Positions 1 through 28,000 of a stretch of 64,000 bases of DNA are shown here, in pieces. A program made the position numbers and the translations under genes. Under the pieces are notes generated by a model. It was not told the DNA's origin. It did no database searches and worked only from the letters and a program-made list of their open reading frames with translations. Within the stretch, counting starts at the first letter, position 1; each line of letters begins with the position of its first letter. Source of the stretch: an uncultured delta proteobacterium (GTDB lineage Bacteria > Desulfobacterota > RBG-13-43-22); contig CAWJJC010000027.1 of the NCBI GenBank assembly GCA_963843145.1, forward strand, positions 320,001 through 384,000. The letters are read 5' to 3'.

Positions 1-899
1 GCCGAGGAATAACAAATGGCCAGGGGATTCCTGATTTCATGGGCGATGCCCCCGGCCATAACCCCCAGAGCGGCCATTTTTTGGGATTGAAGGAGTTCCA
101 TTTCGAATTTCCTCTTTTCCGTCAAATCCCGGCCTACGGCCACGATACCTACTGTTTGATCGCTACTGTCCCTCAGGGGGGAGAAGACCCAGGATACCGG
201 GATAAAAGTCGATCGGCTGGTTCTTAATAAACACTCCTTCATCCGGGCGCCCTTCCAGGTTTCGATACGGGGAAAAATCTCCTGGATTTCCTTTCGATCC
301 TCGGCGGTACAGAAATCGGTAAAATCGCGTTCCCGCGCTTCCGCGGCGGAATAACCGGAAATTCTTTCGGCGGCGCCGTTCCAGGTCTGGATCCTGCCCT
401 TTCGGTCCATGGACAAAATCAAATCATTGGCGCTCTCCACAATGCTGGCCAGATGACCTTCCACCCGTCGCATCTCCTCGCTGAGGCGCGCTTCCTCGGT
501 CACATCATCCATCAGGAGGATAACCCCCTCCACCTTTTCCCGGGAGGAGAAGGGCAGGAGACTGTAGTAATAAATCCGGGTGGGCACCCCGGGGGCGCGG
601 TAGGTCATCCGTTCTCCCTTGGCCGGTTGATTGGTTTCAATGACCTCTCGCATCCGCTTGCCGATGTCCATCTGTTCGAAGATCACGGGGGGAAAAACTT
701 TTTCCAGTTTGTAGCCGAGGGTATTCGTTCGAGTCCTTTGACTCTTTTCGAGAAAATTGCGGTTGGCCGAGACAATACGCATGTCTGGACCAATCAGGAG
801 GACGGATGAGGGTATGGCGTCCAGAAGCATGGTGTAGAGCTGCTCAAACTGGTCCGGAAATTCCTGGAGGGTCGGATCAGGGGGTTTGGATTTGATCAT
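1..899 (-). CDS. PAS-PAS sensor histidine kinase (GvrB-like), runs off the window edge
   Basis: Not in the ORF track. Manual translation from ATG at 899: MIKSKPPDP...LLDAIPSSVLLI...WNGAAERISGY...QSQKMAALGVMAGGIAHEIRNPL (H-box). Overlaps the 3' end of the GvpL/F gene. Confidence 0.9.
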   Translation of the reverse strand, partial: MIKSKPPDPTLQEFPDQFEQLYTMLLDAIPSSVLLIGPDMRIVSANRNFLEKSQRTRTNTLGYKLEKVFPPVIFEQMDIGKRMREVIETNQPAKGERMTYRAPGVPTRIYYYSLLPFSSREKVEGVILLMDDVTEEARLSEEMRRVEGHLASIVESANDLILSMDRKGRIQTWNGAAERISGYSAAEARERDFTDFCTAEDRKEIQEIFPRIETWKGARMKECLLRTSRSTFIPVSWVFSPLRDSSDQTVGIVAVGRDLTEKRKFEMELLQSQKMAALGVMAGGIAHEIRNPLAICYSS

Positions 900-2436
900 T
901 CCTTCCCTTCCTGCCTCGATCCGACTTCTGGGCGGATGGTCCGGCGGGTGCGAGATCGGTGGCGACAAAATTATAAGGCGGCCAGGGACCGCTGATCAGG
1001 GCCTTGGCCTCTCCATCCTTCGGCATTCGCCGGAAGGCTTCCTGGAAGAGGCTGACTTTATTTCCCGGCACCAGGAAATAGAGGGACAAGATGACCGACC
1101 CGTTTTTGGCGGCCGTCTCGGTCCGGTGTCTGCCGTACAGACCGGAAAAGGCCTGGATGGTGCGATCCAGAAGCATCTGTTGCCGGCGGGAGTTCTCAGC
1201 CCTCATCCGGTAATGGGTCTTCCGCAGGGTGAGGTAATCCTGTCCGTTGACCGGCTGTTTTTCCGACGGTGACTCCACCGCCTCCTCGGGCAACAGGATA
1301 CGGATTCCCATTTCGACCCGACCGGCCAGTATATCGAGCAGCGCCTGGTATTGACGCCTCCTCTCTCCCAGGATCTTGCGGATCGCTTCCTTGCCGTTGA
1401 GGAAACAGCCGTAGCGCAGGGGAACAACCGCCTGCCGGCGATGAAGGTCCTCCATAACCCGGCTATAGATCAGGAGTTCGGAAACAGGGGGCGCCCCTTC
1501 CTCGGCCGACATCTCCGACACGGCGGCGCACAGGCCATGAACGGCGACGAAGGATATCTCCCGGCCCTTCACCCCCGTCAGAGGCCCGCCGGGGACGACC
1601 GGATCTTTGGTGATACCGTAGAGCAGATAGGTCATCATCCCTGACGTTTCGAGAACCGGGGCGAAGTGGTAAGGCGGCCAGGGACCGGAAAGCTCAAGCC
1701 GAAGCCCCTGGGCACCATGATCCCTGTTCCATTCGCCCAGCAGGCTTTCCAGGATATCTACGGATCGGTCGGGAACAAGAAAAGCGCCATGGAAAAACAT
1801 CTCACCGTCCATTCCCGTCACCTCCCGCGACAGGAGGCGACGTTCACTGAAAGACGAAGACGTCTCCTGAAAGATCCTCAGGATTTCCTCCCCTCTCTCC
1901 CTGAGCCGGGAGGTCAGCTCCCGCTCTACGGCCCCTTTGATTTTTTGTTCCAGAAAATAGCGCTTCCCCGGAGAAAGGCCGTCTAATTGTTCTTTTTCCG
2001 CCGCTAACCGCGCGTCCAGGATCTGCCTCCGGGCCTGCGGTTTGTCCACATAAGCCTTGAGGCTCCATTCCTTTTTCCCGGCCGTATCCCGGAAAAAGCT
2101 TGACCAGGTACCCTGATGCCGCCTCAGCGGCACCTCCAGCGCCTCGAGGGAAGAAAAGACCGTGCCAAAGCGAACGGGCAGCACGGGGACCTGCTCCATG
2201 ACGTCCATGATGACCGCCTCGTGACGCAGCGCCCGAGATCCGATCCAGGCCAGATCTTCCAGGCGGGTCTGGGCTTCCGGTCCGCAGAAATCCACCAAGG
2301 CGACCTCGGAGAAGATGGCGGCCACGTCCCCGACGATTTCGGCAGCGAGGGGATGCTCCCCGCCGATCCCCGTTCCCTTGACCTCCGGAAGAGGATTTCC
2401 CGGCGTCAGGCAAAAAAGATAGATTCCGGTGCTCAC
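877..2436 (-). CDS. Gas vesicle protein with two tandem GvpL/GvpF domains (gvpF2-gvpF3-like fusion)
   Basis: Two units, each starting with YL(F/L)(C/Y), containing (V)LP(V/L)R(F/Y)G and ending in SGPWPPY(H/N)F. Confidence 0.9.
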   Translation of the reverse strand: MSTGIYLFCLTPGNPLPEVKGTGIGGEHPLAAEIVGDVAAIFSEVALVDFCGPEAQTRLEDLAWIGSRALRHEAVIMDVMEQVPVLPVRFGTVFSSLEALEVPLRRHQGTWSSFFRDTAGKKEWSLKAYVDKPQARRQILDARLAAEKEQLDGLSPGKRYFLEQKIKGAVERELTSRLRERGEEILRIFQETSSSFSERRLLSREVTGMDGEMFFHGAFLVPDRSVDILESLLGEWNRDHGAQGLRLELSGPWPPYHFAPVLETSGMMTYLLYGITKDPVVPGGPLTGVKGREISFVAVHGLCAAVSEMSAEEGAPPVSELLIYSRVMEDLHRRQAVVPLRYGCFLNGKEAIRKILGERRRQYQALLDILAGRVEMGIRILLPEEAVESPSEKQPVNGQDYLTLRKTHYRMRAENSRRQQMLLDRTIQAFSGLYGRHRTETAAKNGSVILSLYFLVPGNKVSLFQEAFRRMPKDGEAKALISGPWPPYNFVATDLAPAGPSAQKSDRGRKGRNDQIQTP

Positions 2437-4568
2437 CCCATCCGCCCGCGCACTTCCTCCAGGGCCTCCTCGATATCCTCAGGCCGGATGAGGATTTCCG
2501 GTTCCCCGGCCCCGGACTTCTCCAGGGTCTTTACGGCCCGGCGAACCGCCGTCATGGCGGCTTGGCGCATGACCGCGGCGATGTCGGCCCCGGTGAAGCC
2601 TTCGGTCCTTTCTGCCAGTTTCGTGCTGTGAATATTTTTAGCTAGAGGTTTCTGACGAAAATGCACCACAAATATCTCCTTCCGATCTGCTTGGGTGGGC
2701 ACCATCATCTCGACAATATCGTCGAAGCGGCCCGGTCGGAGGACCGCGGCATCCAAAATATCTAAACGATTGGTCGCCCCCAGGACGAGAACTCCTCGAA
2801 GTTCGTCGATGCCGTCAAACTCAGCCAAAAACTGGCTGAGGATCCGTTCGGAGACATGGGAATCCGAAGCCCCGGCGCTCCGGGTCGGAACGAGCGCGTC
2901 GATCTCGTCAAAAAAGATGATGCAGGGCGCCGCCTGTCTGGCTTTGTGAAAGATCTCCCGGAGCCCCTTCTCCGACTCTCCGACCCATTTCGACATCAAG
3001 GCCGGCCCTTTGACGGAGATGAAATTTACCTGGCTTTCCGTGGCAATCGCCTTGGCCATCATCGTCTTGCCGCATCCCGGAGGACCGGCAAGAAGAATCC
3101 CCTTGGGCGGGGTCACGCCCCCCTTTTCAAAAAGGTGCGGATACTTCAGCGGCCACTCCACGGCCTCGACGAGGCGCTGTTTCAAAGAAGCGAGGCCTCC
3201 GACGTCTCCCCAGTGCACATTCGGAGATTCGACAAAGACCTCCCGGATGGCGGATGGTTCGATCTCCCGCAGGGCGGCCAGGAAGTCTTCCATGCGCACC
3301 TCGAGTTTCGAGAGGGTTTCGTAAGGAATCCCGGCCTGCCCGAAATCGATCTCCCCCATGATCTGGCGCAGGCAGCTCATGGCCGCTTCCCGGCAGAGGG
3401 CCTCTAAATCCGCTCCGACGAAACCGTGGGTGATTTCCGCCAGGTGATCCAGGTGGACGTCTTCGGCCAGGGGCATCCCCCGGCTGTGAATCTCCAGGAT
3501 CTCCAGACGGCCGCGCCGGTCCGGGATGGGAATAACGATCTCCCGGTCAAAGCGGCCCGGTCGCCGCAGGGCCGGGTCAAGGGCATTGGGAATATTGGTA
3601 GCGGCAATGACGATGACGTTCTGTCTCTTGTTCAGACCGTCCATGAGGGCCAGAAGCTGGGCGACGACCCTTTTTTCCACGTCCCCGACCACGTTTTCCC
3701 GGCGGGGGGCGATGGCGTCGATTTCGTCAAGAAAGAGGATGCTCGGTCCCTTCCGGGTCGCCTCTTCGAAGATCTTCCGCAGGTGGGCCTCGCTTTCACC
3801 ATAAAACTTGTGGATAATCTCCGGTCCGCTGATGGAAAAGAAATTGGCCTCCGTCTCGTGAGCAATGGCGCGGGCGATGAGGGTCTTCCCGCACCCCGGA
3901 GGACCATAGAGCAGCACTCCTTTGGGGGCATCGATCCCCAGGCGTTCAAAAACCTCGGGATAGCGCAGCGGCAGTTCAATCATCTCCCGGATGCGCTGAA
4001 GCTGGGATTTCAAACCGCCGATGTCTTCATAGGCCAGGGTCCTGCCGACCCCTTCTTCTCCTTGCGACTTGCCGATAACCAGAATGGTGGTCGGGTTGAT
4101 GATCACCGGCCCCTTGGGCGTCACGGATTCGACTTTGAAGAAAGCGGCCCGGCTGCCGAACAGGGCCGCCTGGATCTTGGCCCCCTCCATGACCGGCAGC
4201 CCATCGAGGAGGCTCCCGATGTATTTCAGGTCCCGCTCCGCCGGGGTGACGTTGGTCGGCGTCAGGACGATCCGTTCCGCCGGACGGCATTTCAATTTGC
4301 CGATTTTCACCATTTCATCAAGCCCGACGCCGGCGTTCTCCCGGGTCAATCCGTCCAGTTGGACTCGGGACTGGCCGCGGATTTCCTTAAAAGCGGGCAT
4401 GACTTTGCAGAGGGCCTTGCGCTTTCCCTCGACTTCCACCGTGTCGCCGACAGCCGCCTGGAGTCGATCGAGATCTTCCGGTCCCATCCGGGCTAAAGCG
4501 CGTCCGACGTCCTTGGTCAGGGCTTCGGTTACTTTCAGCTTGATGAACGGTTTTTCAGTCTCTTTCAT
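2433..4568 (-). CDS. CDC48/VCP-family AAA+ ATPase (GvpZ-like)
   Basis: CDC48 N-domain (LKVTEALTKDVGRALARM) plus two AAA modules with GPPGCGKT, FLDEID/FFDEID and RPGRFD. Confidence 0.95.
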   Translation of the reverse strand: MKETEKPFIKLKVTEALTKDVGRALARMGPEDLDRLQAAVGDTVEVEGKRKALCKVMPAFKEIRGQSRVQLDGLTRENAGVGLDEMVKIGKLKCRPAERIVLTPTNVTPAERDLKYIGSLLDGLPVMEGAKIQAALFGSRAAFFKVESVTPKGPVIINPTTILVIGKSQGEEGVGRTLAYEDIGGLKSQLQRIREMIELPLRYPEVFERLGIDAPKGVLLYGPPGCGKTLIARAIAHETEANFFSISGPEIIHKFYGESEAHLRKIFEEATRKGPSILFLDEIDAIAPRRENVVGDVEKRVVAQLLALMDGLNKRQNVIVIAATNIPNALDPALRRPGRFDREIVIPIPDRRGRLEILEIHSRGMPLAEDVHLDHLAEITHGFVGADLEALCREAAMSCLRQIMGEIDFGQAGIPYETLSKLEVRMEDFLAALREIEPSAIREVFVESPNVHWGDVGGLASLKQRLVEAVEWPLKYPHLFEKGGVTPPKGILLAGPPGCGKTMMAKAIATESQVNFISVKGPALMSKWVGESEKGLREIFHKARQAAPCIIFFDEIDALVPTRSAGASDSHVSERILSQFLAEFDGIDELRGVLVLGATNRLDILDAAVLRPGRFDDIVEMMVPTQADRKEIFVVHFRQKPLAKNIHSTKLAERTEGFTGADIAAVMRQAAMTAVRRAVKTLEKSGAGEPEILIRPEDIEEALEEVRGRMG

Positions 4569-4579
4569 AATCCCTCACT

Positions 4580-5269
4580 TTAGGTCTTTTCACATCGGAT
4601 GGTCACAATGCCGTTGTTGCAGGTTACCTTGATCCTCTCCTCGGAAAGGCTGTGACGCAACAGGATCTCTTTCCGGTATTTTTTCCCGCCTTTCTTGGCG
4701 AAGACCGTCAGGACGTCGTCCCGGACTTCAATTTTGATATCCTCCGGCCCCACCCCCGGCATTTCGGCGATCAAGGTGGTGCCGGACTCATCCTCGAAGA
4801 CATCGAGGGGAGGTTCGTGGATTTCCTGAACCACCGCCTCACCGGTTTTCTTGTCTTTGCGTATGTTGCCAAAAGGTTCCACCCGGATTTGATCGTCCTG
4901 GCCCCCTAAACCCGTTTTCATGGTAAATCCATAGACCCCTTTGAGGCCGCCTTCTTTTGACGAGAAGGTAAATTCCCCTTTATCAGACAGGGATTCCCCT
5001 TTTTCCGAAATAGCATTGAGCTTTTCAGCTATGTCCGTCAAACCGGTGAGGAACCGGCTGAAACGGTTCTCGCCGGCCGTCTTTTCCCCGCTTCCACGGT
5101 CCGCCCGGTCGCTCCCCGGACGGGAAGCCCGATCTCGAGCGTGCTTCTCTCCTGCCTCGGCCAGGTCCCCAAGGTTATTCAAAAATCCGGTCAGGCTATT
5201 AAAAACGCCGCCTCCAAATCCCGCTTGTTCCCCTTCGCCGTTTTTGAGGTCCGGCCTACGTTTTTTCAT
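4580..5269 (-). CDS. Hsp20/alpha-crystallin family protein (GvpH-like)
   Basis: C-terminal EPPLDVFED...IAEMPGV...NNGIVTI; also the GVYGFTMKTGLG...PFGNI segment seen in archaeal-type Hsp20s. Confidence 0.85.
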   Translation of the reverse strand: MKKRRPDLKNGEGEQAGFGGGVFNSLTGFLNNLGDLAEAGEKHARDRASRPGSDRADRGSGEKTAGENRFSRFLTGLTDIAEKLNAISEKGESLSDKGEFTFSSKEGGLKGVYGFTMKTGLGGQDDQIRVEPFGNIRKDKKTGEAVVQEIHEPPLDVFEDESGTTLIAEMPGVGPEDIKIEVRDDVLTVFAKKGGKKYRKEILLRHSLSEERIKVTCNNGIVTIRCEKT

Positions 5270-6677
5270 TGGTTCCTCCGTTTATTCGGATTCCAAATTT
5301 TTTCACTTTCGTATGAATGGTCTTATAGTCGACCTTCAACAACCTGGCCGCCTGGGCCTTGTTTCCTCCTGTTGTTTTCAGCACTTCCGTGAGAACCTTT
5401 TTTTCCACGTCCAGAACGTTCATTCGAACAATTTCGGCGAGGGACGTATGCTCCCAAGGCGTTCTCTGAACCTTCGAGGCATAGGCCATTTCCGGCGCCG
5501 AAGCCCGCTTGATGCTGAGATTCTTTTCGGTGATCACCTCCTTGACCACCAGGGCGGCCTGCCGGATTACCGATCGGAGCTGGCGGACATTTCCCGGCCA
5601 GTCATAAGACATCAAGGTCTCCACCGCCCCGTCCGTGAAACCCTTGACCAACTTGTTCAATTCGATATTGGCCAGATCCAGAAAACGCTTGGCCAGGTAA
5701 GGAATATCGTCTTTTCTCTCTCGGAGGGGGGGGATAATAATCGTAAACTCGCTCAGACGGTAATAGAGATCCTTTCGAAAAGTACCCGCAGCACTCATTT
5801 GCTGAAGGTCCTGATTGGTCGCCACGATGATCCGGATATCCACGTCCACGGGTTTCGACCCGCCGATCCGATAGAGCTTCCGATCTTGAATAACCCGGAG
5901 GAACTTCGCCTGAGAACCGGGGGGCATATTGGCGATCTCATCCATGAACAGGGTCCCGCCGTGGGCCAGTTCAAACTTGCCAATTTTCTGGCGCTCCGCT
6001 CCGGTGAACGATCCCTTTTCATGACCAAACAGTTCGCTCTCCAACAGCGGTTCGGGAATGGCACCGCAATCCACCGGCATAAAGGTCGCGTCCCTCCGCT
6101 GGCTGTCTTCATGTATGGCCTCGGCAACCAGTTCTTTTCCCGTGCCCGTCTCGCCCAGGATGACCACAGAGAAGTCCGATTTCGATACCCGGTGGACCTC
6201 GGCCACAAGCCGGCTGACCATTTCGCTGGGTCCCATGCGCTGGATAAGGCCAAAGTTTCCCTGATAGCCGTCTTTTTTGGATTTCAGGGCCCTCTTTAAT
6301 TTTCCTTCCGCCAGGGCGCGGCGGGTAATCCTGACCACCTCGTCATTGTCGAAGGGTTTGGACAAATAATCAAAGGCCCCTATCTTTATGGCCTCCACGG
6401 CCTGGTGAATATCGGCGTAGGCCGTGACCAGCACCACCGGCAGGTCGTCGTCAATGGTCTTAATTTTTTTCAGGACCTCCATGCCGTTGAGGCCAGGCAT
6501 GCGGATATCCAGGAGCACGGCATCCGGGGTATCGAATAAAATCCTCTGGATGGCCTGATCTCCGTCAGGAGCGGTGATGACTTTGATTCCCTCATTTTCC
6601 AGGATATGGATCAGAATCTTTCTGATTCCCTCTTCATCATCGACGACCAGAATACGTCCTATAAAATCATCCTTCAT
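5256..6677 (-). CDS. Sigma-54-dependent response regulator, NtrC family (GvrA-like)
   Basis: REC domain (ILVVDDE, LLDIRMP), GETGTGKE, ESELFGHEKGSFTGA, WPGNVRQL and a Fis-type HTH. Start reassigned to MKDDF at 6677. Confidence 0.95.
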   Translation of the reverse strand: MKDDFIGRILVVDDEEGIRKILIHILENEGIKVITAPDGDQAIQRILFDTPDAVLLDIRMPGLNGMEVLKKIKTIDDDLPVVLVTAYADIHQAVEAIKIGAFDYLSKPFDNDEVVRITRRALAEGKLKRALKSKKDGYQGNFGLIQRMGPSEMVSRLVAEVHRVSKSDFSVVILGETGTGKELVAEAIHEDSQRRDATFMPVDCGAIPEPLLESELFGHEKGSFTGAERQKIGKFELAHGGTLFMDEIANMPPGSQAKFLRVIQDRKLYRIGGSKPVDVDIRIIVATNQDLQQMSAAGTFRKDLYYRLSEFTIIIPPLRERKDDIPYLAKRFLDLANIELNKLVKGFTDGAVETLMSYDWPGNVRQLRSVIRQAALVVKEVITEKNLSIKRASAPEMAYASKVQRTPWEHTSLAEIVRMNVLDVEKKVLTEVLKTTGGNKAQAARLLKVDYKTIHTKVKKFGIRINGGTNEKT

Positions 6678-6678
6678 A

Positions 6679-7293
6679 TCATCTTTTTCCTTTATTTGAA
6701 GGACGATTAATGGGATAAAGAATATGAATATCTTCCGGCAGGAAATCGGCAACATTATGCAGCATCCCCAGGAAAAGGATGCCTGTCTCCCCCGCCTGCA
6801 GGGTCGTTGCGATCCTCGACGCAATGAACGCGTCCCGCTTCCTCAGCAGAAGATCACTGGCCGCCTTTTGACTGGCCTCGATCTCGATGGCCTTTTTTAC
6901 CTCGCCGGATTCGAGAACCTTTTTGATGAGCCGATACTCTTCGATGAGCAGTTCCGCCGATTCCGTGCCCATGATCGTCGCCCCTTTTTCCATAAGGCGG
7001 ACCAAGAGTTGGTGATTGGGACTTCCTTTTCTTGCTATTTCAGTTATTATCTCCATCTCTTTATCACACACCGGCAGGCCATCCTGGTAAACGCGGGTTT
7101 GTCCATAGGAAAGAGAAAGGGTATCGAGGGTGTCTTCTATGCCGGACCAAAACTTTTCGATAAGCTGGTGTTTACGTCTCCAGGTTCGCTCACCGAGCTT
7201 TTGGAGGGTGACCTTTTTGACCGATTCGCTCAGTGTCCCCATATCTGACTCGGTGTGGACAATAGGAATGTAGATAAGCGTTCTGGAAGTCAT
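6679..7293 (-). CDS. Hypothetical protein, positional equivalent of GvpY
   Basis: 204-aa ORF with RBS (GAAGGAG) that abuts the gvrA-like gene. Motifs IPIVH, YQDGLP, RDAFIA and LFLGMLH suggest a TraB/TIKI-like fold. Confidence 0.75.
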   Translation of the reverse strand: MTSRTLIYIPIVHTESDMGTLSESVKKVTLQKLGERTWRRKHQLIEKFWSGIEDTLDTLSLSYGQTRVYQDGLPVCDKEMEIITEIARKGSPNHQLLVRLMEKGATIMGTESAELLIEEYRLIKKVLESGEVKKAIEIEASQKAASDLLLRKRDAFIASRIATTLQAGETGILFLGMLHNVADFLPEDIHILYPINRPSNKGKR

Positions 7294-7322
7294 GGCTCCT
7301 TCGCCCGATACTGTGGGATATA

Positions 7323-7372
7323 TGGAATCTCTTCTATGGAAAACGTTCCATCATAATATGGAATATGTTCCA
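7323..7372. promoter_or_regulatory. Three TGGAA-N4-TTCCA palindromic operator-like sites
   Basis: TGGAAtctcTTCTA (7323), TGGAAaacgTTCCA (7337), TGGAAtatgTTCCA (7359). Confidence 0.6.
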
Positions 7373-7474
7373 GCAGGTCAACCATATTCAGGAAATATTG
7401 AGAATAATTTCGCTGATTTTATCTGGTCCTATCGCCCATTCCTCGCTGGGCGAAAGCCTGATGACCCTGTAATA

Positions 7475-7492
7475 TTGCATGAATCATGCCTT
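7475..7492 (-). promoter_or_regulatory. Putative sigma-54 (-24/-12) promoter facing the gvp-like operon
   Basis: Minus strand aaGGCATGATTCATGCaa = GG-N10-GC. Confidence 0.6.
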
Positions 7493-7574
7493 CTTTCCGT
7501 CAGTCCTGTATAGGCTGGAATCCGGAGTTTACTTAACCCGTATCCACCCGGAGGCTGAAAGCGTTGGTCACTTT

Positions 7575-9110
7575 TCATGGTTGGCAAAGAGGCAGCTCAA
7601 TGATGAAGGATGTCCCTCCCAGGGTATTGTTTTCCGCGTGAATCGTCCCGCCGTGCTCCCGGATGATCCCTTTGCAGACAGACAAACCCAGTCCGGTGCC
7701 CTCTCCCGGATCTTTGGTAGTAAAGAACGGCTCGAAAATCAGGCCCAAGTTTTCCGCAAGAATACCCTGGCCGTTATCCGCAACGGTCAGGAGGACAGAA
7801 GGCCTGTTCGAAGAAATTCCCGGACGGTGGACCGTAATAATCAGCCGTTTCTGTCGATTGCCGGCCATCGCGGCACAGGCGTTGCGGATAAGGTTGAAAA
7901 CCACTTCCACCAGCCGGGCGCTTTCCATTTTTACCGGTATGACCTCCGGCGGGGCATGGTACTCAACCTGGACCCGATCATCTTTAATCTTGAGCTCCGC
8001 CATTTGCAGACCCCGGTCGATGACCTGGCGGAGGTCGCCGCCAATAAGCCTCGTTGATTCTTTAGCGGAGGATTGACGCAAGTCATGGACAATCTTTACA
8101 ATTCGCTTTATCTGTTCCCGGCTGATCTGCAGGTTTTCTCTGGCCCCTGGCGAAAGGGGTTCTTCTTCCAGAAATTGAAGCCGCGAGGAGATGATGCTGG
8201 CGGGATTGAGGATTTCATGGGCAACGCCGGCGGCCAAGCGTCCGACAGCCGCATCCCTTTCGATCTGGATCAGCAGGTCTTTTGTCTTCTGCAAATGGTC
8301 CAATGTCTCCGTCAGTTTCTCCTCCGCCTGCTTGCGCCCGGTAATGTCTTTTGATACAACAACGACTTCTGAAATTTCTCCAGCGTGCTTCCGATCCCTT
8401 ATCGGGGTGAAGGTACGGAGAAAATACCTCCCATCCCTTTCACTTCGGTATTCTTGAGTGATCGGTTCACCCATTTTAAATACTTTTCTCATCGTTTCCG
8501 CAAAGTCGTTTGAGTTCTCCCGGGAGTGAAATTTGCTGTATCTTTTGCCGACAATATCCTTTAATGGAAGCCCAAATCTCTGCCGGTGTCCTTCATTCAT
8601 GAATAAATACTCGCCTTCCCGGTTTACTAAATACATGGAATCTATGGAAGACGCTAATAACCGGTATTTCTCCAGACTCTGGGCCAATAGCTCCTCTGTC
8701 TTTCTCCTTTCCTGCTCCACCCTGGAGGTATATAGGGCTATTTCGATATTGACTTTGATCTCACTGCTCTGAAAGGGTTTGAGTATATAACCAAAAGGAT
8801 TGACCAATTTAGCCCGTTCCACCCATTCCCGGTCCGCATAGGCCGTGACAAAGATCACCGGGATTCCCCAACGGGAGCGAATGAGGGCCGCGGCCTCGAT
8901 CCCGTCCATTTGACCTTTCAGAACGATGTCCATGAGGACGAGGTCCGGAGATTCCCGCTCCACCACTTCCAGAGACTTTTTCGCCGAATCCACACAAACA
9001 ATGGCCCTATATCCCAACTGCTCCACGCAGGATTTGAGATCAACGGCAATAACGCCCTCATCTTCCACAATCAGGATTTTGGGTTGGGTTGCTGCTTGCT
9101 GTTCAGTCAT
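7575..9110 (-). CDS. REC-PAS-histidine kinase hybrid
   Basis: N-terminal ILIVEDE...LMDI receiver, PAS, AHEILNP H-box, DNGQG / FFTTK / GTGLGL ATPase boxes. Confidence 0.93.
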   Translation of the reverse strand: MTEQQAATQPKILIVEDEGVIAVDLKSCVEQLGYRAIVCVDSAKKSLEVVERESPDLVLMDIVLKGQMDGIEAAALIRSRWGIPVIFVTAYADREWVERAKLVNPFGYILKPFQSSEIKVNIEIALYTSRVEQERRKTEELLAQSLEKYRLLASSIDSMYLVNREGEYLFMNEGHRQRFGLPLKDIVGKRYSKFHSRENSNDFAETMRKVFKMGEPITQEYRSERDGRYFLRTFTPIRDRKHAGEISEVVVVSKDITGRKQAEEKLTETLDHLQKTKDLLIQIERDAAVGRLAAGVAHEILNPASIISSRLQFLEEEPLSPGARENLQISREQIKRIVKIVHDLRQSSAKESTRLIGGDLRQVIDRGLQMAELKIKDDRVQVEYHAPPEVIPVKMESARLVEVVFNLIRNACAAMAGNRQKRLIITVHRPGISSNRPSVLLTVADNGQGILAENLGLIFEPFFTTKDPGEGTGLGLSVCKGIIREHGGTIHAENNTLGGTSFIIELPLCQP

Positions 9111-9193
9111 AGAGGTCCCCCCTGAATTGGGTTTTGCTGTTCAACGGTCGGAGTTCGGCAACAGACAGGACCCGGTACTCAGTGTCCTCAACG

Positions 9194-10692
9194 CTATTTT
9201 TTCGGAAAGGTGACTCGAAATTCTGTTCCCCCCTCCTGGTGGATCGTGATAGTACCCTCCAACTGTTGGACCAGGGCCATTACCAGTTGAAAACCCGTGG
9301 AAGCCGTCTGCTGAAAATCCACCTCGCCGGGAAAATCGATACCGTTATCCCCGACCGATAGCCGGATCATCCCCTCATCAACCAGGGCTAACTCCACCCG
9401 GATTTCACCCCCCCCTCCTGCCGGAAAGCCGTGCTTCAGGGCATTGGTTACCAGTTCATTGATGATCAACCCTAAAGGGATGGCTTTATCAATACCGACC
9501 TGGACTTCCTCGACCTCGATTTTAAGATCCACTCCATCCAGATTAGCCCCGTAGGAATAAAATAGACTGCTGCTCAGGTTTCGAAGATAATCGGCCATCT
9601 CGATCCGGGCCAGGTCCGAAGATCCGGTAAAGCTTCTCGTGCACCAGGGCCATGGACTGGATGCGGTCGTGGGTTTGCTTAAAAGCCTCTAGGACCTCGG
9701 GGTCCTTGATCTTCCTGGTCTGTAGATTCAACAGACTTTGAATCACCTGCAAATTGTTCTTCACCCGGTGATGGATCTCCTTGAGCATGGTCTCCTTCTC
9801 CAGAAGCGACGCCTTGAGCTTTTCCTCCACCTGTTTGCGCTCGGTGATGTCGATATAGCTGTATCGGATAGCCTGCGGTCAGCAGACGGCAATCGGACTA
9901 ACCGCGTTCACAGATAGATCCTTTCCTTCGCCATTATGGATCGCCCTTTCAGTCACCACCTTTCTCTAGCCATGGTACCTTTCGATGTTCTTTTTTATGC
10001 TCTCGGAGATGGGGCGTCCATCAGGCTGGATCGGCGCATAGAAACCTTGCGGTCCAACCTTGAGTAATTCAGGGCTATATCCGAACAGCTTTTCGGCTTG
10101 GGCATTGGCCGAAATAAACCGATTTTCATCGACGTCGAAAACTAGGATAGCTTCCGGCGCCTGTTCCAATAACAAGCGAAACCGCTCCTCGCTCTCCCGC
10201 ACTCTCCTCCGCCTGCTTGCGTTCGGTGATGTCCACTATCACGCCAAGCAGCCCCGCCACTTCACCTTTAGCATTTGTGAAAGTCGCCTTGTTGAAGATA
10301 ACGTTGCGGCGTATTCCATTTGAAGATGCGACTGAAGTTTCGTAGCTTTGCACACCGGGGTTGTTGAGCAACTCCTTGTCGGCCCTCTCGTAAATCTCAG
10401 CCAAGTCCGGAGGTGAAATGTCATACACTGTCTTTCCGATGATTTGATCCAGCGGCCGCCCCCAGAGTCGCTCAAGCGCCTTATTGCCTCCACGATAGAT
10501 GCCGTCTGCATCTTTGTAAAAGATAGGAGAAGGAATCGCATCCATCAACATCTGTTGGAACAGTATGTTGTTTTGGATTACTTCTTCCGCCTGCTTGCGC
10601 TCGCTATCTGAATTTTCGAGTTCAGCAATCCTCCAGCGAAGATTTTCCACTTCCTCTAGCAGTTGTTCTTTGGACTTCCTGTAATCGTTCAT
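9194..10692 (-). pseudogene. Multi-PAS HisKA_2-type histidine kinase, several frameshifts
   Basis: Four consecutive ORF fragments (10126-10692, 9966-10202, 9543-9830, 9194-9598) carry [17 protein letters not shown] and NELVTNALKH/DNGI in changing frames. Confidence 0.85.
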
Positions 10693-10723
10693 TCCTTACA
10701 TCCCCAATGGAGGCATTCACCAT

Positions 10724-10756
10724 AAAAAACCCCATCTCTCTATTGAGAAATGGGGT
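10724..10756 (-). terminator. Intrinsic terminator-like hairpin ~30 nt upstream of the kinase start
   Basis: Minus strand ACCCCATTTCTC-aata-GAGAGATGGGGT followed by a T run. Confidence 0.65.
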
Positions 10757-10878
10757 CCGTTATTCTTTCATTTGACTTCCTTTTTATGAAGGTGACATCA
10801 AGAAAACATTTGATTTCACAAATACCAATTCTTTTTATACCATAACATCAGCAATTTTCAAATAATTTCCTTCAGGTA

Positions 10879-11412: not shown

Positions 11413-11955
11413 TTGCGGGCCATGCGCGCCATCGAGATCTGCAAAACCGCTGCCCTGGGTGGCCATAAGGATCAATGCGACCACTGCGGTCATCTGGATA
11501 TATCCTATAACTCCTGCCGGAACCGGCACTGCCCCAAATGCCAGACGTTACGGAAAGAGCAATGGATCGAGGCGCGCGGTCAGGACCTCCTGAAAAGACA
11601 ACCTGTCCGGTCTGTCAAAAAGGCAAAATGTCCCGGATAGCGGTATTGCTTCCCTATCGAAGCCACAGCCCCTAGCTATTCAGAGAAGTCCTATGATCCA
11701 TTTACAAACCAACCCTCCCGCTTCCTGCGAAAAGGGCACCCTGTTTCGCCAGGGCTTCCTATGGCCAAAATCCATACATTACCACTTCCCCCGATCAGCA
11801 ATGGCCCAATCGATACCGTTACCGGCACCTAGGACCAACCAGTTCCAGTCCCTAAACGAAGGCCATCCGCCTGGCAGACCCTCTCCACTAGGAAATAAAC
11901 TGCGAAGACAGGATTGAATCCCCATAGGAGGCGGCAGCGGCTCCGTTCTTCATGC
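11413..11955 (+). mobile_element. IS91-family transposase remnant (zinc-binding N-terminus) with probable element end
   Basis: CKTAALGGH...CDHCGH..SYNSCRNRHCPKCQ, truncated. Downstream GATTGAATCCCCATAG...GGCTCCGTTC resembles ends of this IS group. Confidence 0.8.
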
Positions 11956-16512: not shown

Positions 16513-17337
<825 letters not shown>

Positions 17338-17347
17338 AATGGCCTCC

Positions 17348-18337
17348 TTAGCGAAATATTCTTTTCATGGCTTCCAGGTTGGCTCTCATCACCCGTTCAT
17401 AGGTGCCGGCAGCCGGCTGACCGGTAGCCACGGGGTCCAGAAGAAGAATCGGGGTCCCGGTTTCCCGGGCCAGAGTCCGGGCAGTCTTATCGGAATACTG
17501 GGGTTCGGTGATAATGGCCGTCACCCCGTCCTTTTTGATCACCCGGATCAACCGGACCATCTCCCGCGGAGAGGGCTCCACGCCGGGGGCCGATTGGATC
17601 GACCCCACATCCTGCCAACCCAGGTCTCGGGCCAGATAATCGAAACTGTTGTGAACGGTCAAAACCTTTTTATTCCGGGACCGGCCCACCAGAGACTTCA
17701 TTTCCTCAAACAAGTTCTCCAGCTTCAGTTGATACGCCTTTCCGTTGGCCCGATAAAGCTCGGCTCGACCCGGATCAATCCGGGCCAGGCCCTCGGCGAT
17801 GGCCTTGACCATCAAGGCCGCCTGTTTCGGCGAGACCCAGGCATGCCCGTTCACCGCGTCTTCCGCGTCGGAAAGATCGTGGCTGACCGAGCGTTTTCTC
17901 TTTTCAGGCGGATGATCGGTATCCGGTCCTTTCAAAGGCACTATCCCTTCCGTAGCGATAATCCACTGGACTCGAGGATGGGCCTGCTTGAGGGGTTTGG
18001 TCAAGAATTCTTCCAGGCCCAACCCATTAACGATGATCACCTCAGCTTGAGCAATTCGCTTCATTTCCCCGGGGGTTAAATCATAGTCGTGGGGACAACC
18101 CAGATTGGGAGGCAAAAGCATCTCCACCCGGACCCCGGGGGCCTTACCCACCACATTCAAGGTAAAAATGGTCACCGGCAGGGTCGTAGTAACGATTCGC
18201 AAGGGGATTGCATTCTTTTTACCCTCCACCGCCTGGGCGGCAAGGAGATTTGGAAACATGAGTCCGAGAGCTAATAGCCAGACCAGGAAGGCCTTAGGGC
18301 TTACCATCTTCTTTAGAATCCCCGCTATCCTGTTCAT
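17348..18337 (-). CDS. znuA: Zn/Mn ABC transporter substrate-binding protein
   Basis: Signal peptide, CPHDY, NGLGLE, NGHAWVSP, HNSFDY. Confidence 0.92.
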   Translation of the reverse strand: MNRIAGILKKMVSPKAFLVWLLALGLMFPNLLAAQAVEGKKNAIPLRIVTTTLPVTIFTLNVVGKAPGVRVEMLLPPNLGCPHDYDLTPGEMKRIAQAEVIIVNGLGLEEFLTKPLKQAHPRVQWIIATEGIVPLKGPDTDHPPEKRKRSVSHDLSDAEDAVNGHAWVSPKQAALMVKAIAEGLARIDPGRAELYRANGKAYQLKLENLFEEMKSLVGRSRNKKVLTVHNSFDYLARDLGWQDVGSIQSAPGVEPSPREMVRLIRVIKKDGVTAIITEPQYSDKTARTLARETGTPILLLDPVATGQPAAGTYERVMRANLEAMKRIFR

Positions 18338-22333: not shown

Positions 22334-24472
22334 TTATTTAACCACAAACGCCACGGAATCGACGAGACGGTTTTCCCGGTCCACCAGGGACAATACAAAT
22401 TTCCCGCGCTCCGGTTTCCATAAAAACAGCGGATCGGAATTGCCGGTCTTCCGGTCGTTTATCACCCACTCGTACGGGTGGGTGGGAGGCTGAAATTGAA
22501 AAGGGACCCGCTGCAGGTCTTCCGGGATTTCGGGATCGAGGCTGATCAGCGTATCCGGGGCCGGGTAGATGATCCGGGGTTTCTGATAGTTCGTATCCAG
22601 CCGGACGGGGAAAACCGGTTCGCTGCCCTTTAGAAACCGCTCTTCTCTTGGCGGTTCCAGGTCCTGATGATAGGAAACCCGGGCCGCCGTCACCCCGGCG
22701 GATAATCGGGGAGGGTTGGAAGGCCGGTTGGCGTGCAGGGTATTCATCATCTCCAGCCAGACCGGCGCCGCTCCGGATACACCGCTCACATTTTTCATCG
22801 GCTCCCCGGAAAAATTCCCCACCCAGACCCCCACCGTATATTTCTCCGAATATCCCAGACACCAGTTATCGCGCATGTCCTTGCTGGTCCCGGTCTTGAC
22901 GGCGGTCCAAAACCGGGTGGACAAAGAATTTTCAAGTCCGAAGGTGATGCTTCGAGCTTCCCGGTCGGCCAGGATATGGGAGACGATCCAGGCCGCGTTT
23001 TTATCGAAGACCCGCACCGGATTTCCCGTCTTTTGATCCGGGCGGAGTTTCAGTTCACTCCATTGCCCCCCATTGGCCAGGGTTCGATAGGCGTTAGCCA
23101 GTTCGCGGAGGGTAATGTCCGCCGAGCCGAGGGCCAGAGAATACCCGTAATAGTCCGCCTCTTCGGTCAGGCTGTCAAAGCCCAACTGCTTGAGCCGGTC
23201 CCTAAAGGGCTGGAGGCCGACCAGCAGCAGGGTCCGGACCGCGGGGATATTGATCGAGGCTGAGAGTGCCGTCCGGACACTCACCGGACCTCTGAATAAA
23301 TGGTCATAATTTTGGGGAACATAAAGCCCCGTTGCCGTGGGCACCTGGAGCGGGGAATCATCGAGGAGCGAGGCCGGGGTCAGGAGTCCTTTTTCAATGG
23401 CCAACCCGTACAGAAAGGGTTTGAGCGTTGATCCGGCCTGTCTTCGGGCGGTGACCCCATCCACCCAGGAGGCGCTGGCGGTCGGCCCGCTGTTCCCCAC
23501 ATAGGCCAGGATTTCACCCGTCCCATTGTCGATGACCAGAACCGCCCCATCGGAGACCCGGCCGTCCTTTAAGCTACCCAAGGCTTGGTTCAGCGTTTCC
23601 AGGGCCAACCGTTGCAACCGGCCGTCAATGGTGGAAACGACTCTGGTTTCCCCATCCTGCATCAGGATCCGGGCCGCCTGGGGGGCCAGGGCGGCTGCGG
23701 GTCTTATCCGGTAAGCGGTTCGCAACCGTTCATCGGCCAGGGCTTTAATCGTCGGAGCGGCAGTCGCTGCGCCCAGGGACTGCCCCAGGAAACAGGCCCG
23801 CTTGATGATACGGTCTACGGGGGCATTGGGCGCGGTAATGAGTGCGGCCAGGATCAAGGATTCGGCTTCGTTCAATCCGCTGGGTTCTTTGTCGAAAAGC
23901 CCCCGGGAGGCGGCGGACAACCCCTGCAATTCAACCCGGTAGGAAACCAGGTTGACATAGGCTTCGAGAATCTGTTCCTTGGACCAGGTCTTTTCCAGCT
24001 CCAGGGCGGCCAGCATCTGGTTCCATTTCTGTTTTAAAGTCCTCCTCCCCTTCCGAGGTTTGAGCCTTTTCTGGAGCAGACCGGAAAGCTGCATGGTGAT
24101 CGTGCTGCCACCCCTCTTCCGCTCCGCCAACGGATTTTCTAAAGCGGAGGCGGCCAATCCCAACCAGTCCACTCCATGATGCCGATAAAACCGCCGATCT
24201 TCCGCCCCCAGGAGCGCCTGAAGGAAGGCCGGAGAAATCTCTTTCCAGGAGACCCAGGCCAGCCTCCGGCCCTGCTTATCAATCCTCAACTCCTGAATGA
24301 CCTGTCCTTGTCGGTCGAGAAGCAGGGCATCCGATTTTTTATAGGCATTTTTAACCGTTTCAAAGGAGGGCGATTTCTGAAGATCGGCCGCGCTGATCAA
24401 ACAAATCCCCAGCCCGACCAGGAGAATAACCAGGGAAAGCGCGACCCATTTCAGTATTCGGGACTTATTCAT
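22334..24472 (-). CDS. pbpC: Penicillin-binding protein 1C
   Basis: EDRRF, GGSTITMQ, STLK, KTG and a C-terminal BiPBP domain; downstream of A2M. Start reassigned to MNKSR. Confidence 0.95.
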   Translation of the reverse strand: MNKSRILKWVALSLVILLVGLGICLISAADLQKSPSFETVKNAYKKSDALLLDRQGQVIQELRIDKQGRRLAWVSWKEISPAFLQALLGAEDRRFYRHHGVDWLGLAASALENPLAERKRGGSTITMQLSGLLQKRLKPRKGRRTLKQKWNQMLAALELEKTWSKEQILEAYVNLVSYRVELQGLSAASRGLFDKEPSGLNEAESLILAALITAPNAPVDRIIKRACFLGQSLGAATAAPTIKALADERLRTAYRIRPAAALAPQAARILMQDGETRVVSTIDGRLQRLALETLNQALGSLKDGRVSDGAVLVIDNGTGEILAYVGNSGPTASASWVDGVTARRQAGSTLKPFLYGLAIEKGLLTPASLLDDSPLQVPTATGLYVPQNYDHLFRGPVSVRTALSASINIPAVRTLLLVGLQPFRDRLKQLGFDSLTEEADYYGYSLALGSADITLRELANAYRTLANGGQWSELKLRPDQKTGNPVRVFDKNAAWIVSHILADREARSITFGLENSLSTRFWTAVKTGTSKDMRDNWCLGYSEKYTVGVWVGNFSGEPMKNVSGVSGAAPVWLEMMNTLHANRPSNPPRLSAGVTAARVSYHQDLEPPREERFLKGSEPVFPVRLDTNYQKPRIIYPAPDTLISLDPEIPEDLQRVPFQFQPPTHPYEWVINDRKTGNSDPLFLWKPERGKFVLSLVDRENRLVDSVAFVVK

Positions 24473-24487
24473 AGTATCATTTGACGT

Positions 24488-25036
24488 ATTGAACGTCGAA
24501 CATCCAACATCGAACATCGAACATCGAATGAAGGTTTGTTTTTCGTAGGGCCGGCGACCCCGCCGGCCGGCTGAGTGAGGGATAGGGTGCCCTGCACATC
24601 CAAGGTAAGGCTACGGCGACGGTGACCAAATCCGGCCCCGATTTGGGCGGCGAGGTCGCCGCCCCTACGAAAGACCACTTCGTCATTCGGGATTCGAAGT
24701 CGGAAATTCGAAATTCGTTTCTATTTTCATACTAACCCCCCATGCCCGGGGCGGGCACCCACGAAGCATGAAAATACATGGACTTGCCAGCAAAGACGTC
24801 ATTGCGAGGAGTGGAGCGACGAAGCAATCCCCCAACTGGCTCCCGGGTTCCTCTAAGCTGTCGATGGGGATTGCTTCGCTCCGCTCGCAATGACCGGAGC
24901 TGGGGCTATTTTCGTATTAAACCCCCATGCCCGCGGGCGGGCGCCCAAACGCATGAAAATATTTCAATAAATACTCACAGCCGAGGGCGGCTGTGCTACA
25001 TTATGCTGTGGCCACCCTCCAGGAGGGTGAACAACC
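24488..25036. repeat. Stack of several repeat families between A2M and pbpC
   Basis: AACATCG array (24490-24530); GTAGGG...CCCTAC pair (24545-24668); CGAAATT array (24685-24717); ~56-nt direct repeat (24721-24776 / 24906-24961) bracketing a GTCATTGCGAG...CTCGCAATGAC palindrome (24798-24894); CACAGCCG hairpin; partial 90-nt element (24995-25036). Confidence 0.88.
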
Positions 25037-25038
25037 CA

Positions 25039-28000
25039 TCATTTTTTTATCTCCATCTTCCGGTTCGGCAGTTCTCCGAACATCTCCGGGGAATAGAGGG
25101 CCTCGGCCCGGGTTTCCGGCAAATAAAAGAGGCCTTCATTATTGAGCCGGAGGGTGTATTCCACCGTCCATTTCCCCTTGGGGACAAATTCGTAATAAAC
25201 CCTCAACGCTTCAAAAGAACGTTCCCGGAAAGCCTCCCAGGGCCGGCCCTGCTCCTGCTCGCCCCCGGAGAGCAGACTTGAATCCCTTCCCAGACCGCTG
25301 CCGAGTATCAGCGCCCCTCCGGGGATGGGATCACTGACCACGACCCAGGTCCGATCCGCCTGGGATTCCAATTCGATCCGCACCCGGATCACGTCGCCCT
25401 TGCTCCAAAGGCCCTTAATTTTTTGCTCCATCGGAATGAGCGTCTTTTTGATGGCATACCCGGTGAAAAAAGGCTGCTTCAAAGGGATGGCCGCCCGGCT
25501 GGTGACAATGGCCCAGGGGTTTCCGGCGCCTTTATGAGTAATTTGAAGGGCTTCTCTCTTTTTGCCCCAAGGAAAGGCGATCTCCCCTCCGGCCGGGTTC
25601 TTCCTCCAGTCCAGCGTTTGCGTTTTATTCGAGAGCGCCGCCTCGGTGAAACCGGTGACGGGTCCCGATTCGTGGATCGCCCCGAATTTTTCCAGGGCCA
25701 GCAGGCCCCAGGCATTGGCCGGGGTCGTATCCCAGTGTCCCCTTTTCATTCGCTCCAACAGACCCCGAACCATTCGGGGCTGATCTTCCTTCCAGCCCTC
25801 CAAAGGGAGGGTGGTCAGCAGCGCCCTGACGGCATTGGTGTCCGGGCTGGCCATGAGCCACCAAAGATTGTCCGTCTTTTCGCTGGAAAAGCCCAAAAGG
25901 GTTCCCTGGAGATTCATCCGCGAGCGGAGGCTTTGCTCGGCTTCCCTCAGTTTTTTCAGCCGGTCGGGGAGCTCTTTAACCCGCTGCAGGACGTTTATCC
26001 AGTCCAGGACCGCCGAGGTGGGCCAGAGCGAAGGTTCCGGGACAATGGTGGTCAGCAGCCCGGCGGGTGCTTCTCCGTAACGGGAAAGGGCCTCCATGGC
26101 GGACAGTTTCCTTAAGGTCAGGTCGGCCGCCGGCCAAACGGACTGCCGGATGACCCGTCCTTCGATGAAGGCTTTAAGCCCCTGGAGCATCTGTTTTCTC
26201 AACGGGCCGGGGATCTCCTGCCCGGCCTCCTGGCTGATGGAGAGCACGTAGGCCGTCAGGACCTCGCTTCCCTGTTTCATGTTGGGAAAATATTTGGCCA
26301 GGCCCTGATCGTCGAGATAGGAAGGGAGTTCTGCCATCAGGGACGGCCAGGCCTCCTTTTCCCGCGCCACGATAGCCTTGGAGAGTTTCTGTTCCAGGCA
26401 AAGGTAGGGGTATTTTTTCATGTACTCGATCAGGGCGCCAAGACCCTCCAGCAATTTAGGCTTCAACGCCAGGCGGGTCCCGCCCCGGCCGGGAACAGCG
26501 TCTCCGGGCATCTCCACCTCCAAACGCACCGGATCCTTGAGCTGAAAAAGGGTGGCCTGAACGGTTCGCACCGAAACGGCGGGGGCTATTTTCTGGGAGA
26601 CCTTGATCCGGTCCCGGGCGGTCCCTCCCACTTCCTGGATCAAGGCCTCGTAGTCCGTTCTTTCAATCCCCAGGGGCGCGGTAACCTCCCAGCCGATTTC
26701 TTTGGCCTCACCGGCCGGGATGGTTTCTTTGACCGGTTCTCTGGCTTGTTTTCCCCGGACATCCTGCATCGCCAGGGCGGCCTCCACCCGCATTTCTCTG
26801 GTAGAGGCGTTCCGCACGGTGAAGCCGGCCCAAAAACGGTCCCCTTCCCGCACCAGCGGGGGGATCCCCGAGAGAATCATCAGTTCCTGGGCGGCCCGGA
26901 TGCTGGTGCCACCCGTCCCAAAATAACCTGCTCCTCCGTTGGCCACCGCCGTTATTCGGAAGGAGGTCAGGGAATCGTTGAGGGGAAACTTTACCTCGGC
27001 TTCGCCGTTTTCATCCAAAAGCACCACCCCTTTCCAGTAGACAAGGGTATTGAACAATTCCCGGGTGAACTGCCTTCCACCGCCGCCTCCGTGCGGGAGG
27101 GCCTTGCGGCCGAAATGCCTTTTCCCGATCACCATCATCTGGGCGGTGGCCGTCTCCACGTCGCACCCGGCCCGCTTCATCATCGCCTCCAGCAGTTTCC
27201 AACTTTCATTGGGCTTCAGCTCCAACAGGCCTTCATCGACCACGGCCACAGCCGCTTCACTTCCTGGGGGAGGCGGCTTCCCGTCGGCGGTTCTGACCCT
27301 TATCCGGACCGCCACGGTTTCCCGGGCCGTATAGGTTTTCTTATCCGACGACACCTCCACCTTCAACTCGTGGGCCTTCCAGCCCACCCGGATCTCAGTC
27401 AGACCCAGTTTGTAGGCGGGCTTCCCCGGATCAAAGGCGGCGGTCGGCCGGCTCCCGGTAACCCGGCCTCTAACCACCAGGGCGGAGATAAATACATTGG
27501 GCGCGTAATTCGCTTTCACCGGAATTTCTACCATGGGATTCGCCCGGGAAAGTCTCTTGATATAGGCTTCCAGGACCCCTTCCCGTTCCACGGTAATCAG
27601 GGCCGTGGCCTCCCGAAAAGGCAGCTTCACCTGAAAGCGGGCCTGTTCGCCGGGCTCCCATTGTCTCTTATCCGGAAGGATATCCATGCGGTCATCGTTT
27701 CGGGCTTCCAACCAAAGGTCGTCCTTCCCGGGAATCCAGATCTCCAGGTGCGTCAGGGCCCGGGGGCCTGATTCGCCGGAGACTTCGGCCTGAATGAGCA
27801 GCGAACCGGTAACGGGCGATGGGGCGTCAACGTGCAAAATCCCGTTTCGGTCTGTTTTGCCCTGAAAATGCGGGCCGATTTCCTTAATCTCGTTTACATG
27901 TTCGTAGGCATAAAATCCTCCAGCCAGGCGTTTCCGGTGAGAATAGGTTTTTCTCTGAAAGAGGGTCGTCTTCACCTCCACAGCGGGCCTCGGCCGGCCT

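Follow-up and report, generated by a model that had tools for sequence, protein, structure and literature searches.

In Serratia sp. ATCC 39006, the gas-vesicle locus has the order gvpA1CNVF1GWA2KXA3Y followed by gvrA gvpH Z F2 F3 gvrB gvrC (PMC4982088; PMC9501494). Full transcription of gvpA1 needs each of GvrA, GvrB, and GvrC, and gvpF2, gvpF3, gvrA, and gvrB are required for vesicles (PMC4982088). The gvpA1 promoter is of the sigma-54 type and the gvrA promoter of the sigma-70 type (PMC4982088); in an rpoN mutant, transcription of gvpA1 went down and that of gvrA did not (PMC11778176). The genes gvpH, gvpY, and gvpZ are dispensable in Serratia, and their deletion lowered the vesicle signal in E. 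coli (PMC10344784). The presence of such gene clusters is no guarantee of vesicles (PMC3551663).

In the present study, we analyzed a 64,000-nt stretch of DNA (hereafter, the window) from a deltaproteobacterium-like genome, the host of the cluster described here. With a probability of about 0.89, the cassette at its left end is the regulator and helper half of an ordinary Serratia-type gas-vesicle cluster, whose contiguous shell genes would lie left of position 1. As first described, namely as a regulatory and chaperone half standing alone, the finding is of little importance, being an effect of the window edge on a type of cluster already known.

The cassette and its Serratia counterpart

The first-pass annotation reported a tightly coupled minus-strand cassette and named its gene types, and both points were borne out by the gaps and domain matches: six open reading frames follow one another with gaps of +1, -14, +11, -4, and -26 nt (Table 1). 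Its "GvpL/F x2" holds for the domains, of which there are two, but not for the genes, since both domains are in one open reading frame. The gvpZ product scored 899.8 bits against TIGR01243 (CDC48; cut-off 802.65), whereas the match of the gvpH-like protein to NF041800 was below the NF041800 cut-off. The part of gvrB within the window is 75% identical to a 502-aa protein of L001, a Deltaproteobacteria MAG described below.

Table 1. Features of the cassette, its leader, and the adjacent kinase genes (window coordinates)
Feature	Position	Strand	Remarks
gvrB-like PAS-PAS histidine kinase, 5' part	1..902 (start ~902)	-	leaves window at start of HisKA region
gvpF2 and gvpF3 in a single 519-aa ORF	877..2436	-	two GvpL/GvpF (PF06386) domains
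gvpF2 part; gvpF3 part	~2436-1651; ~1635-877	-	halves of the 519-aa ORF
gvpZ, Cdc48/p97-type AAA+ ATPase, 711 aa	2433..4568	-	N domain and two AAA domains
gvpH-like small heat-shock protein (Hsp20), 229 aa	4580..5269	-	PF00011; same slot in relatives
gvrA, NtrC-type sigma-54 activator, 473 aa	5256..6677	-	REC-AAA-HTH domains
gvpY-family protein, 204 aa	6679..7293	-	predicted TIKI/EreA/ChaN-type fold
Palindrome TGGAA-N4-TTCCA, three copies	7323..7372 (starts 7323, 7337, 7359)		two exact copies and a third with a single mismatch
Sigma-70-type promoter candidate TTGACC-17-TATTAT	7353..7381	-	10/12; nearer gvpY than the sigma-54-type site
Sigma-54-type GG-N10-GC site	7475..7492	-	199 nt before gvpY; 9/12 consensus positions
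REC-PAS-HisKA-HATPase gene, neighbour	7575..9110	-	intact; not a constant member of the cassette
PAS-PAS-HisKA_2-HATPase kinase, broken	9194..10692	-	four pieces in three frames; outside the cassette

Compared by domain types, the window and Serratia have in common the gene types and their order from gvrA to gvrB, with an NtrC-type GvrA and a probable gvpY ahead of it; the match to the Serratia order given in the annotation agrees with PMC9501494. Three differences were found. In Serratia, gvpY ends the gvpA1 operon, whereas in the window it heads the regulator operon and is packed closely against gvrA. The shell genes are upstream in Serratia and expected downstream in the window. Furthermore, Serratia-type GvpF2 and GvpF3 are separate chains, whereas in the window they form one frame. 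As for gvrB, it follows gvpF3 in the window and in L022, whereas in the Desulfomonilaceae MAG L020, gvrB and gvrC are on the opposite strand, beyond the shell genes.

GvpF2 and GvpF3 are separate in each of the 32 locus pairs that were compared, some of which are more distant paralogues. The nearest GvpF2 relative among the matches listed, P0121 (92%), ends in ETQG, and compared with such an ending the window junction has one base too many. A conserved natural GvpF2-GvpF3 fusion was considered and rejected: among 120 listed matches of 285-909 aa (8000 candidates scored; the list does not include the window protein itself), only P0012 spans F2 and F3, and similarity in its F2 part ends past residue 198, as expected of a read-through. 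Either the join is a mutation private to this genome, which may be a damaging one, or the assembly is in error here. The junction is at 1651-1635.

Upstream of the cassette, the REC-PAS kinase and the decayed kinase were found as annotated (9110-7575, intact, and 10692-9194, in four pieces). The 3' part of the intact gene is syntenic with L003. Several relatives carry signalling genes of various kinds in this slot, so these kinases are unremarkable. Just ahead of the broken kinase is a terminator-like hairpin of 14 pairs (10758-10727, minus strand); a search of the whole window against Rfam gave 0 matches, and the hairpin thus stays a terminator-like site. At 11413-11640, the plus strand encodes part of the zinc-binding domain (PF14319) of an IS91-family transposase. 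Farther on, the window carries a bacterial alpha-2-macroglobulin gene beside a PBP1c-type gene, and selB (22334-30633 and 35409-37328), which are ordinary.

Purifying selection acts on each of the seven reading frames, with dN/dS values against L001 of 0.16 (gvpY), 0.22 (gvrA), 0.11 (gvpH), 0.07 (gvpZ), 0.32 (gvpF2), 0.40 (gvpF3), and 0.30 (gvrB), each pairwise value being an average over a long history and three comparisons with L004 being saturated. The dN/dS analysis of gvpZ and gvpF proposed with the annotation is compatible with any functional reading and does not separate the explanations.

Shell genes in related loci

Profiles of GvpA/J/S, GvpN, GvpK, GvpG, GvpC-like proteins, GvpV, and ArsA gave no convincing match in a six-frame search of the window at E values up to 10, in agreement with the absence of gvpA/N/K-like genes noted at first; the only row was the Cdc48 open reading frame against GvpN (E 0.065). 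The profiles had been built from related loci, in which those of GvpA gave 174 matches.

GTDB genomes were scanned with a 35-sequence GvpF2 alignment, and the best 80 of at least 516 confirmed stretches were kept, with flanks of up to 10 kb. Among these best 80 of at least 516, gvpY-gvrA-gvpH-gvpZ-gvpF2 occur in this order in 23 loci; 20 of the 23 have a GvpA-family gene downstream, and none has one upstream, where 0.8-5.3 kb was available. All 20 cassette loci of the same best 80 of at least 516 with 3.5 kb or more downstream have gvpA there, and none of these informative loci shows the cassette recurring without shell genes. The three remaining loci are L002 and L009, which extend only 64 and 745 nt past gvpF2, respectively, and L003, a true exception. 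Other shell genes downstream in the 23 loci (best 80 of at least 516) are gvpN (19), gvpG (17), and gvpK (14). Regulator-first order thus dominates the cassette loci among the best 80 of at least 516. The same arrangement, with the gvrA operon before the gvpA operon, has been described as an inverted order in Desulfomonile tiedjei DCB-1 and Psychromonas ingrahamii 37 (PMC4982088), and RefSeq annotation of Methylosinus and Methylocella plasmids gives the order regulator-gvpF-kinase-response regulator-gvpA.

The distance to gvpA can be estimated from loci in which, as in the window, gvrB follows the gvpF genes. When gvrB lies within 2.6 kb of gvpF2, gvpA1 is found 1041-1572 nt past the equivalent of position 1 (16 of 16 loci among the best 80 of at least 516); in the frameshifted L054, outside this gvrB filter, the distance is 2313 nt. 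L001 (JACQYK010000032.1), the closest relative among the best 80 of at least 516 with 63-91% protein identity, has gvrC after gvrB and a gvpA, confirmed by Pfam PF00741, 1340 nt past the equivalent of position 1. In L013, Pfam identified a full gvpA/N/F/G/K/J set.

Since gvpA is downstream in all 20 informative relatives, the shell genes of the present cluster are expected left of position 1. The operon is severed by the window edge on exactly this side. The gvpY protein of the window is on record in a contig of 485,828 bases, so that the source sequence extends beyond the window. The annotation, which called the cassette "standing alone" and held that shell genes belong upstream, had looked on the wrong side: an upstream position is true of Serratia but of 0 of the 23 relatives (best 80 of at least 516). 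Of its two alternatives, the first, namely that the shell operon is not within the window but elsewhere, is favoured by the gene order of the relatives. Left of position 1 there would be about 200 codons of gvrB, then gvrC, and then gvpA; judging from the relatives, the shell operon most likely starts about 1.3 kb from the edge. It would contain gvpA, a gvpC-like gene, gvpN, gvpV, gvpF1, gvpG, gvpK, and gvpJ/S.

Some side features of the relatives are recorded here. Tandem gvpA-gvpC-like repeats are present in L001 (13842-14579), L004, L010, and L018; the first gvpA frame of L001 stops after 59 codons, and the L001 contig ends inside the second copy. L004 has a second Cdc48 copy after gvpV (16922-18193), which is 94% identical to the window gvpZ, as against 85% for the first copy. 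L025 (JBIRBM010000004.1), labelled as a Parachlamydiaceae MAG, has a complete-looking gas-vesicle cluster without gvrA, gvrB, or gvrC; this is unexpected for the label, and the contig is possibly mis-binned.

Candidate promoters and a candidate GvrA operator

The cassette had been credited with its own sigma-54 promoter. A GG-N10-GC site is present at 7492-7475, but it reaches only 9/12, and the sigma-70-type site, at 10/12, is nearer to gvpY. On both strands of the window, 17 sites reach the same 9/12 score. Similar sigma-54-type sites are found 196-224 nt before gvpY in L001-L004. Among the best 80 of at least 516 stretches, a score of 9/12 or more against the consensus occurs before gvpY in 7 of 23 loci and before gvpA1 in 21 of 25. 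The sigma-70-type site has aligned equivalents in L002 and L003. As a pattern match, a sigma-54 promoter of the cassette's own is possible.

The first copy of the palindrome TGGAA-N4-TTCCA lies in the spacer of the sigma-70-type site. With up to one mismatch, the palindrome is present in 10 of 23 gvpY leaders (shuffled sequences: mean 0.23, maximum 2) and 121-360 nt before gvpA1 in 12 of 23 loci (mean 0.29, maximum 3), and of the 40 such sites present in 27 loci (445 kb), 29 are in one of these two intervals; these counts overstate the significance, as the motif was taken from the window, the intervals were chosen after viewing the promoter data, and the loci are related. Examples in the relatives are L001:13511, L012:14214, and L033:3198. 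GvrA fits the palindrome by position: some sites are at the distance from a sigma-54 promoter that is usual for an enhancer, and others coincide with the regulator's own promoter. From this positional evidence, TGGAA-N4-TTCCA is probably a GvrA operator, and we treat it as a candidate. No GvrA binding site was named in the passages of the literature that were consulted.

We propose that the cluster works as follows. The PAS kinase GvrB, with the receiver protein GvrC, would activate GvrA, presumably by phosphotransfer, and if the Serratia scheme extends to this organism, GvrA would switch on a sigma-54 promoter ahead of gvpA. As the positions of the palindromes suggest, GvrA probably binds these boxes, by which it would activate gvpA from upstream and damp its own operon where the boxes overlap a sigma-70-type promoter. 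GvpF2 and GvpF3 would serve vesicle assembly, and GvpH, GvpZ, and GvpY would be accessory helpers, which probably keep the hydrophobic shell proteins soluble and remodel or clear them.

Predicted fold of GvpY and readings without adjacent shell genes

GvpY is listed as having an unknown function in PMC4982088. The window protein matched no Pfam or NCBIfam family and no PDB sequence, and sequence searches led only to unnamed Atlas clusters and, at E 0.001, to 1317 representatives, likewise unnamed. Translation of the primers used to delete gvpY in Serratia gives LIHFPI and QPLGKG, which fit both ends of a 39-sequence family alignment; together with gene position, these two six-residue stretches support homology of the 204-aa protein to GvpY.

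In the AlphaFold model of GvpY (pLDDT 91.4), helices flank a parallel sheet. Of the six best VIA-align rows, five were ChaN (Z 9.1, rmsd 4.0, 156 aligned), HopBA1 (Z 8.0, rmsd 3.4, 144 aligned), PMT (Z 7.2), EreC (Z 6.4), and RRSP (Z 6.2), the folds of which are grouped as TIKI/Ere relatives in PMC6254334. The TraB_PrgY_gumN model was weakly matched by 13 of the 39 family members (best E 2.7e-4), whereas a Foldseek search with the GvpY model gave nothing significant (E 0.3 or worse), and identity to the TIKI-superfamily structures is 9-12%. The VIA-align Z values are of moderate size as well, and the case for a TIKI/EreA/ChaN-type fold, which we regard as predicted, is built on the agreement among the matches. 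Like the superfamily (ChaN, HopBA1, the Ere esterases, and TraB/PrgY/GumN), modelled GvpY has a parallel sheet core. In the GvpY family, His13, Asp71, Glu111, Glu119, Arg153, and His179 are invariant in 39 of 39 members, and some of these might correspond to the 2His/2Glu catalytic set and the conserved Arg of the superfamily. GvpY has Gln-Asp where what we take to be the TIKI pattern expects Glu after strand 2. Some TIKI-fold members do not have the catalytic set, and a peptidase or esterase activity of GvpY is only a candidate. Among the gas-vesicle papers listed by literature searches, there was no mention of TraB or EreA, and no earlier assignment of the GvpY fold was found in the papers searched. 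The fold assignment and the candidate GvrA operator are by-products of this study that are testable in the Serratia model. A plasmid of Octadecabacter arcticus carries a lone gvpY homologue (L081:11977-12594), with no gvp genes within 12 kb.

The exceptions among the relatives bear on other readings of the window locus. In L003 (MICN01000040.1, a Syntrophus MAG; 2781-10458), which also has the window's upstream kinase, the cassette breaks off behind gvpF2, and the next gene encodes an unrelated membrane sensor of the Tll0287-HAMP-PAS type. In L039 (JAPLNP010000212.1, a Planctomycetia MAG; 7127-10780), Hsp20, Cdc48, and GvpF genes have no gvp shell gene within 20.7 kb. Both were viewed at the locus only, and they indicate that split or relic clusters exist. 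The proposed survey for cassettes without gvpA, which found none in the 20 informative loci among the best 80 of at least 516, did yield these two local exceptions.

One possible explanation of the missing shell genes is a split cluster, in which the shell operon is elsewhere in the genome and controlled by GvrA in trans. In addition to the broken cassette of L003, shell genes divergent from gvpH-gvpZ-gvpF2 in L041, GvpA-family genes upstream of gvpH in L030 and L034, and the divergent operons of Burkholderia thailandensis (PMC4982088) are precedents. However, the window retains gvpF3 and gvrB after gvpF2, and such loci run into gvpA in 16 of 16 cases among the best 80 of at least 516; a split is very unlikely here.

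A second explanation, to which we give a slighter chance still, is that GvpY (as a candidate peptidase), GvpH, and GvpZ form a separable holdase-unfoldase-peptidase unit under GvrA that is kept here without shell genes, the joined GvpF2-GvpF3 acting as an adaptor; L003 and L039 would perhaps be in the same state. A milder version, in which the same trio controls the quality of shell proteins or recycles them within normal clusters, is more probable than this shell-free form, and is nevertheless a tentative idea that we do not expect to hold; it concerns the known system rather than the window locus.

We place lower again the proposal of the first-pass annotation that an intact Cdc48-Hsp20-GvpF module, with a TIKI-fold GvpY, acts in proteostasis without gas vesicles. 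Its appeal comes from the dispensability of gvpH, gvpY, and gvpZ for Serratia vesicles (PMC4982088; PMC10344784), the absence of adjacent shell genes in L039 and L003, and the position of the lone Octadecabacter homologue between transposases. However, GvpF2, GvpF3, GvrA, and GvrB are essential for Serratia vesicles (PMC4982088), deletion of gvpH, gvpY, or gvpZ reduced the vesicle signal in E. coli (PMC10344784), and the palindrome ties the window leader to gvpA promoters. In the best 80 of at least 516, gvpH-gvpZ-gvpF2 are adjacent in 32 loci, eight of which have no GvpA-family gene, and seven of these eight have 3.1 kb or less downstream, the eighth being L039; among the 23 such loci with more than 3.5 kb downstream, plus L034, the gene is missing only in L039. 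With gvpA in all 20 informative cassette loci among the best 80 of at least 516, the proposal is unsupported for the window locus. Equally improbable is a decaying relic that has lost its shell genes and is beginning to erode, as the longer junction that deletes the gvpF2 stop and the broken kinase and IS91 zinc-finger fragment 2-4 kb upstream might suggest, but the cassette has no internal stops, its promoter elements and palindromes are intact, and pairwise dN/dS, though averaged over a long history, is low. Among the relatives, the best candidate for a vesicle-free module is that of L039, which adjoins a divergent gene for a DegP-like protease.
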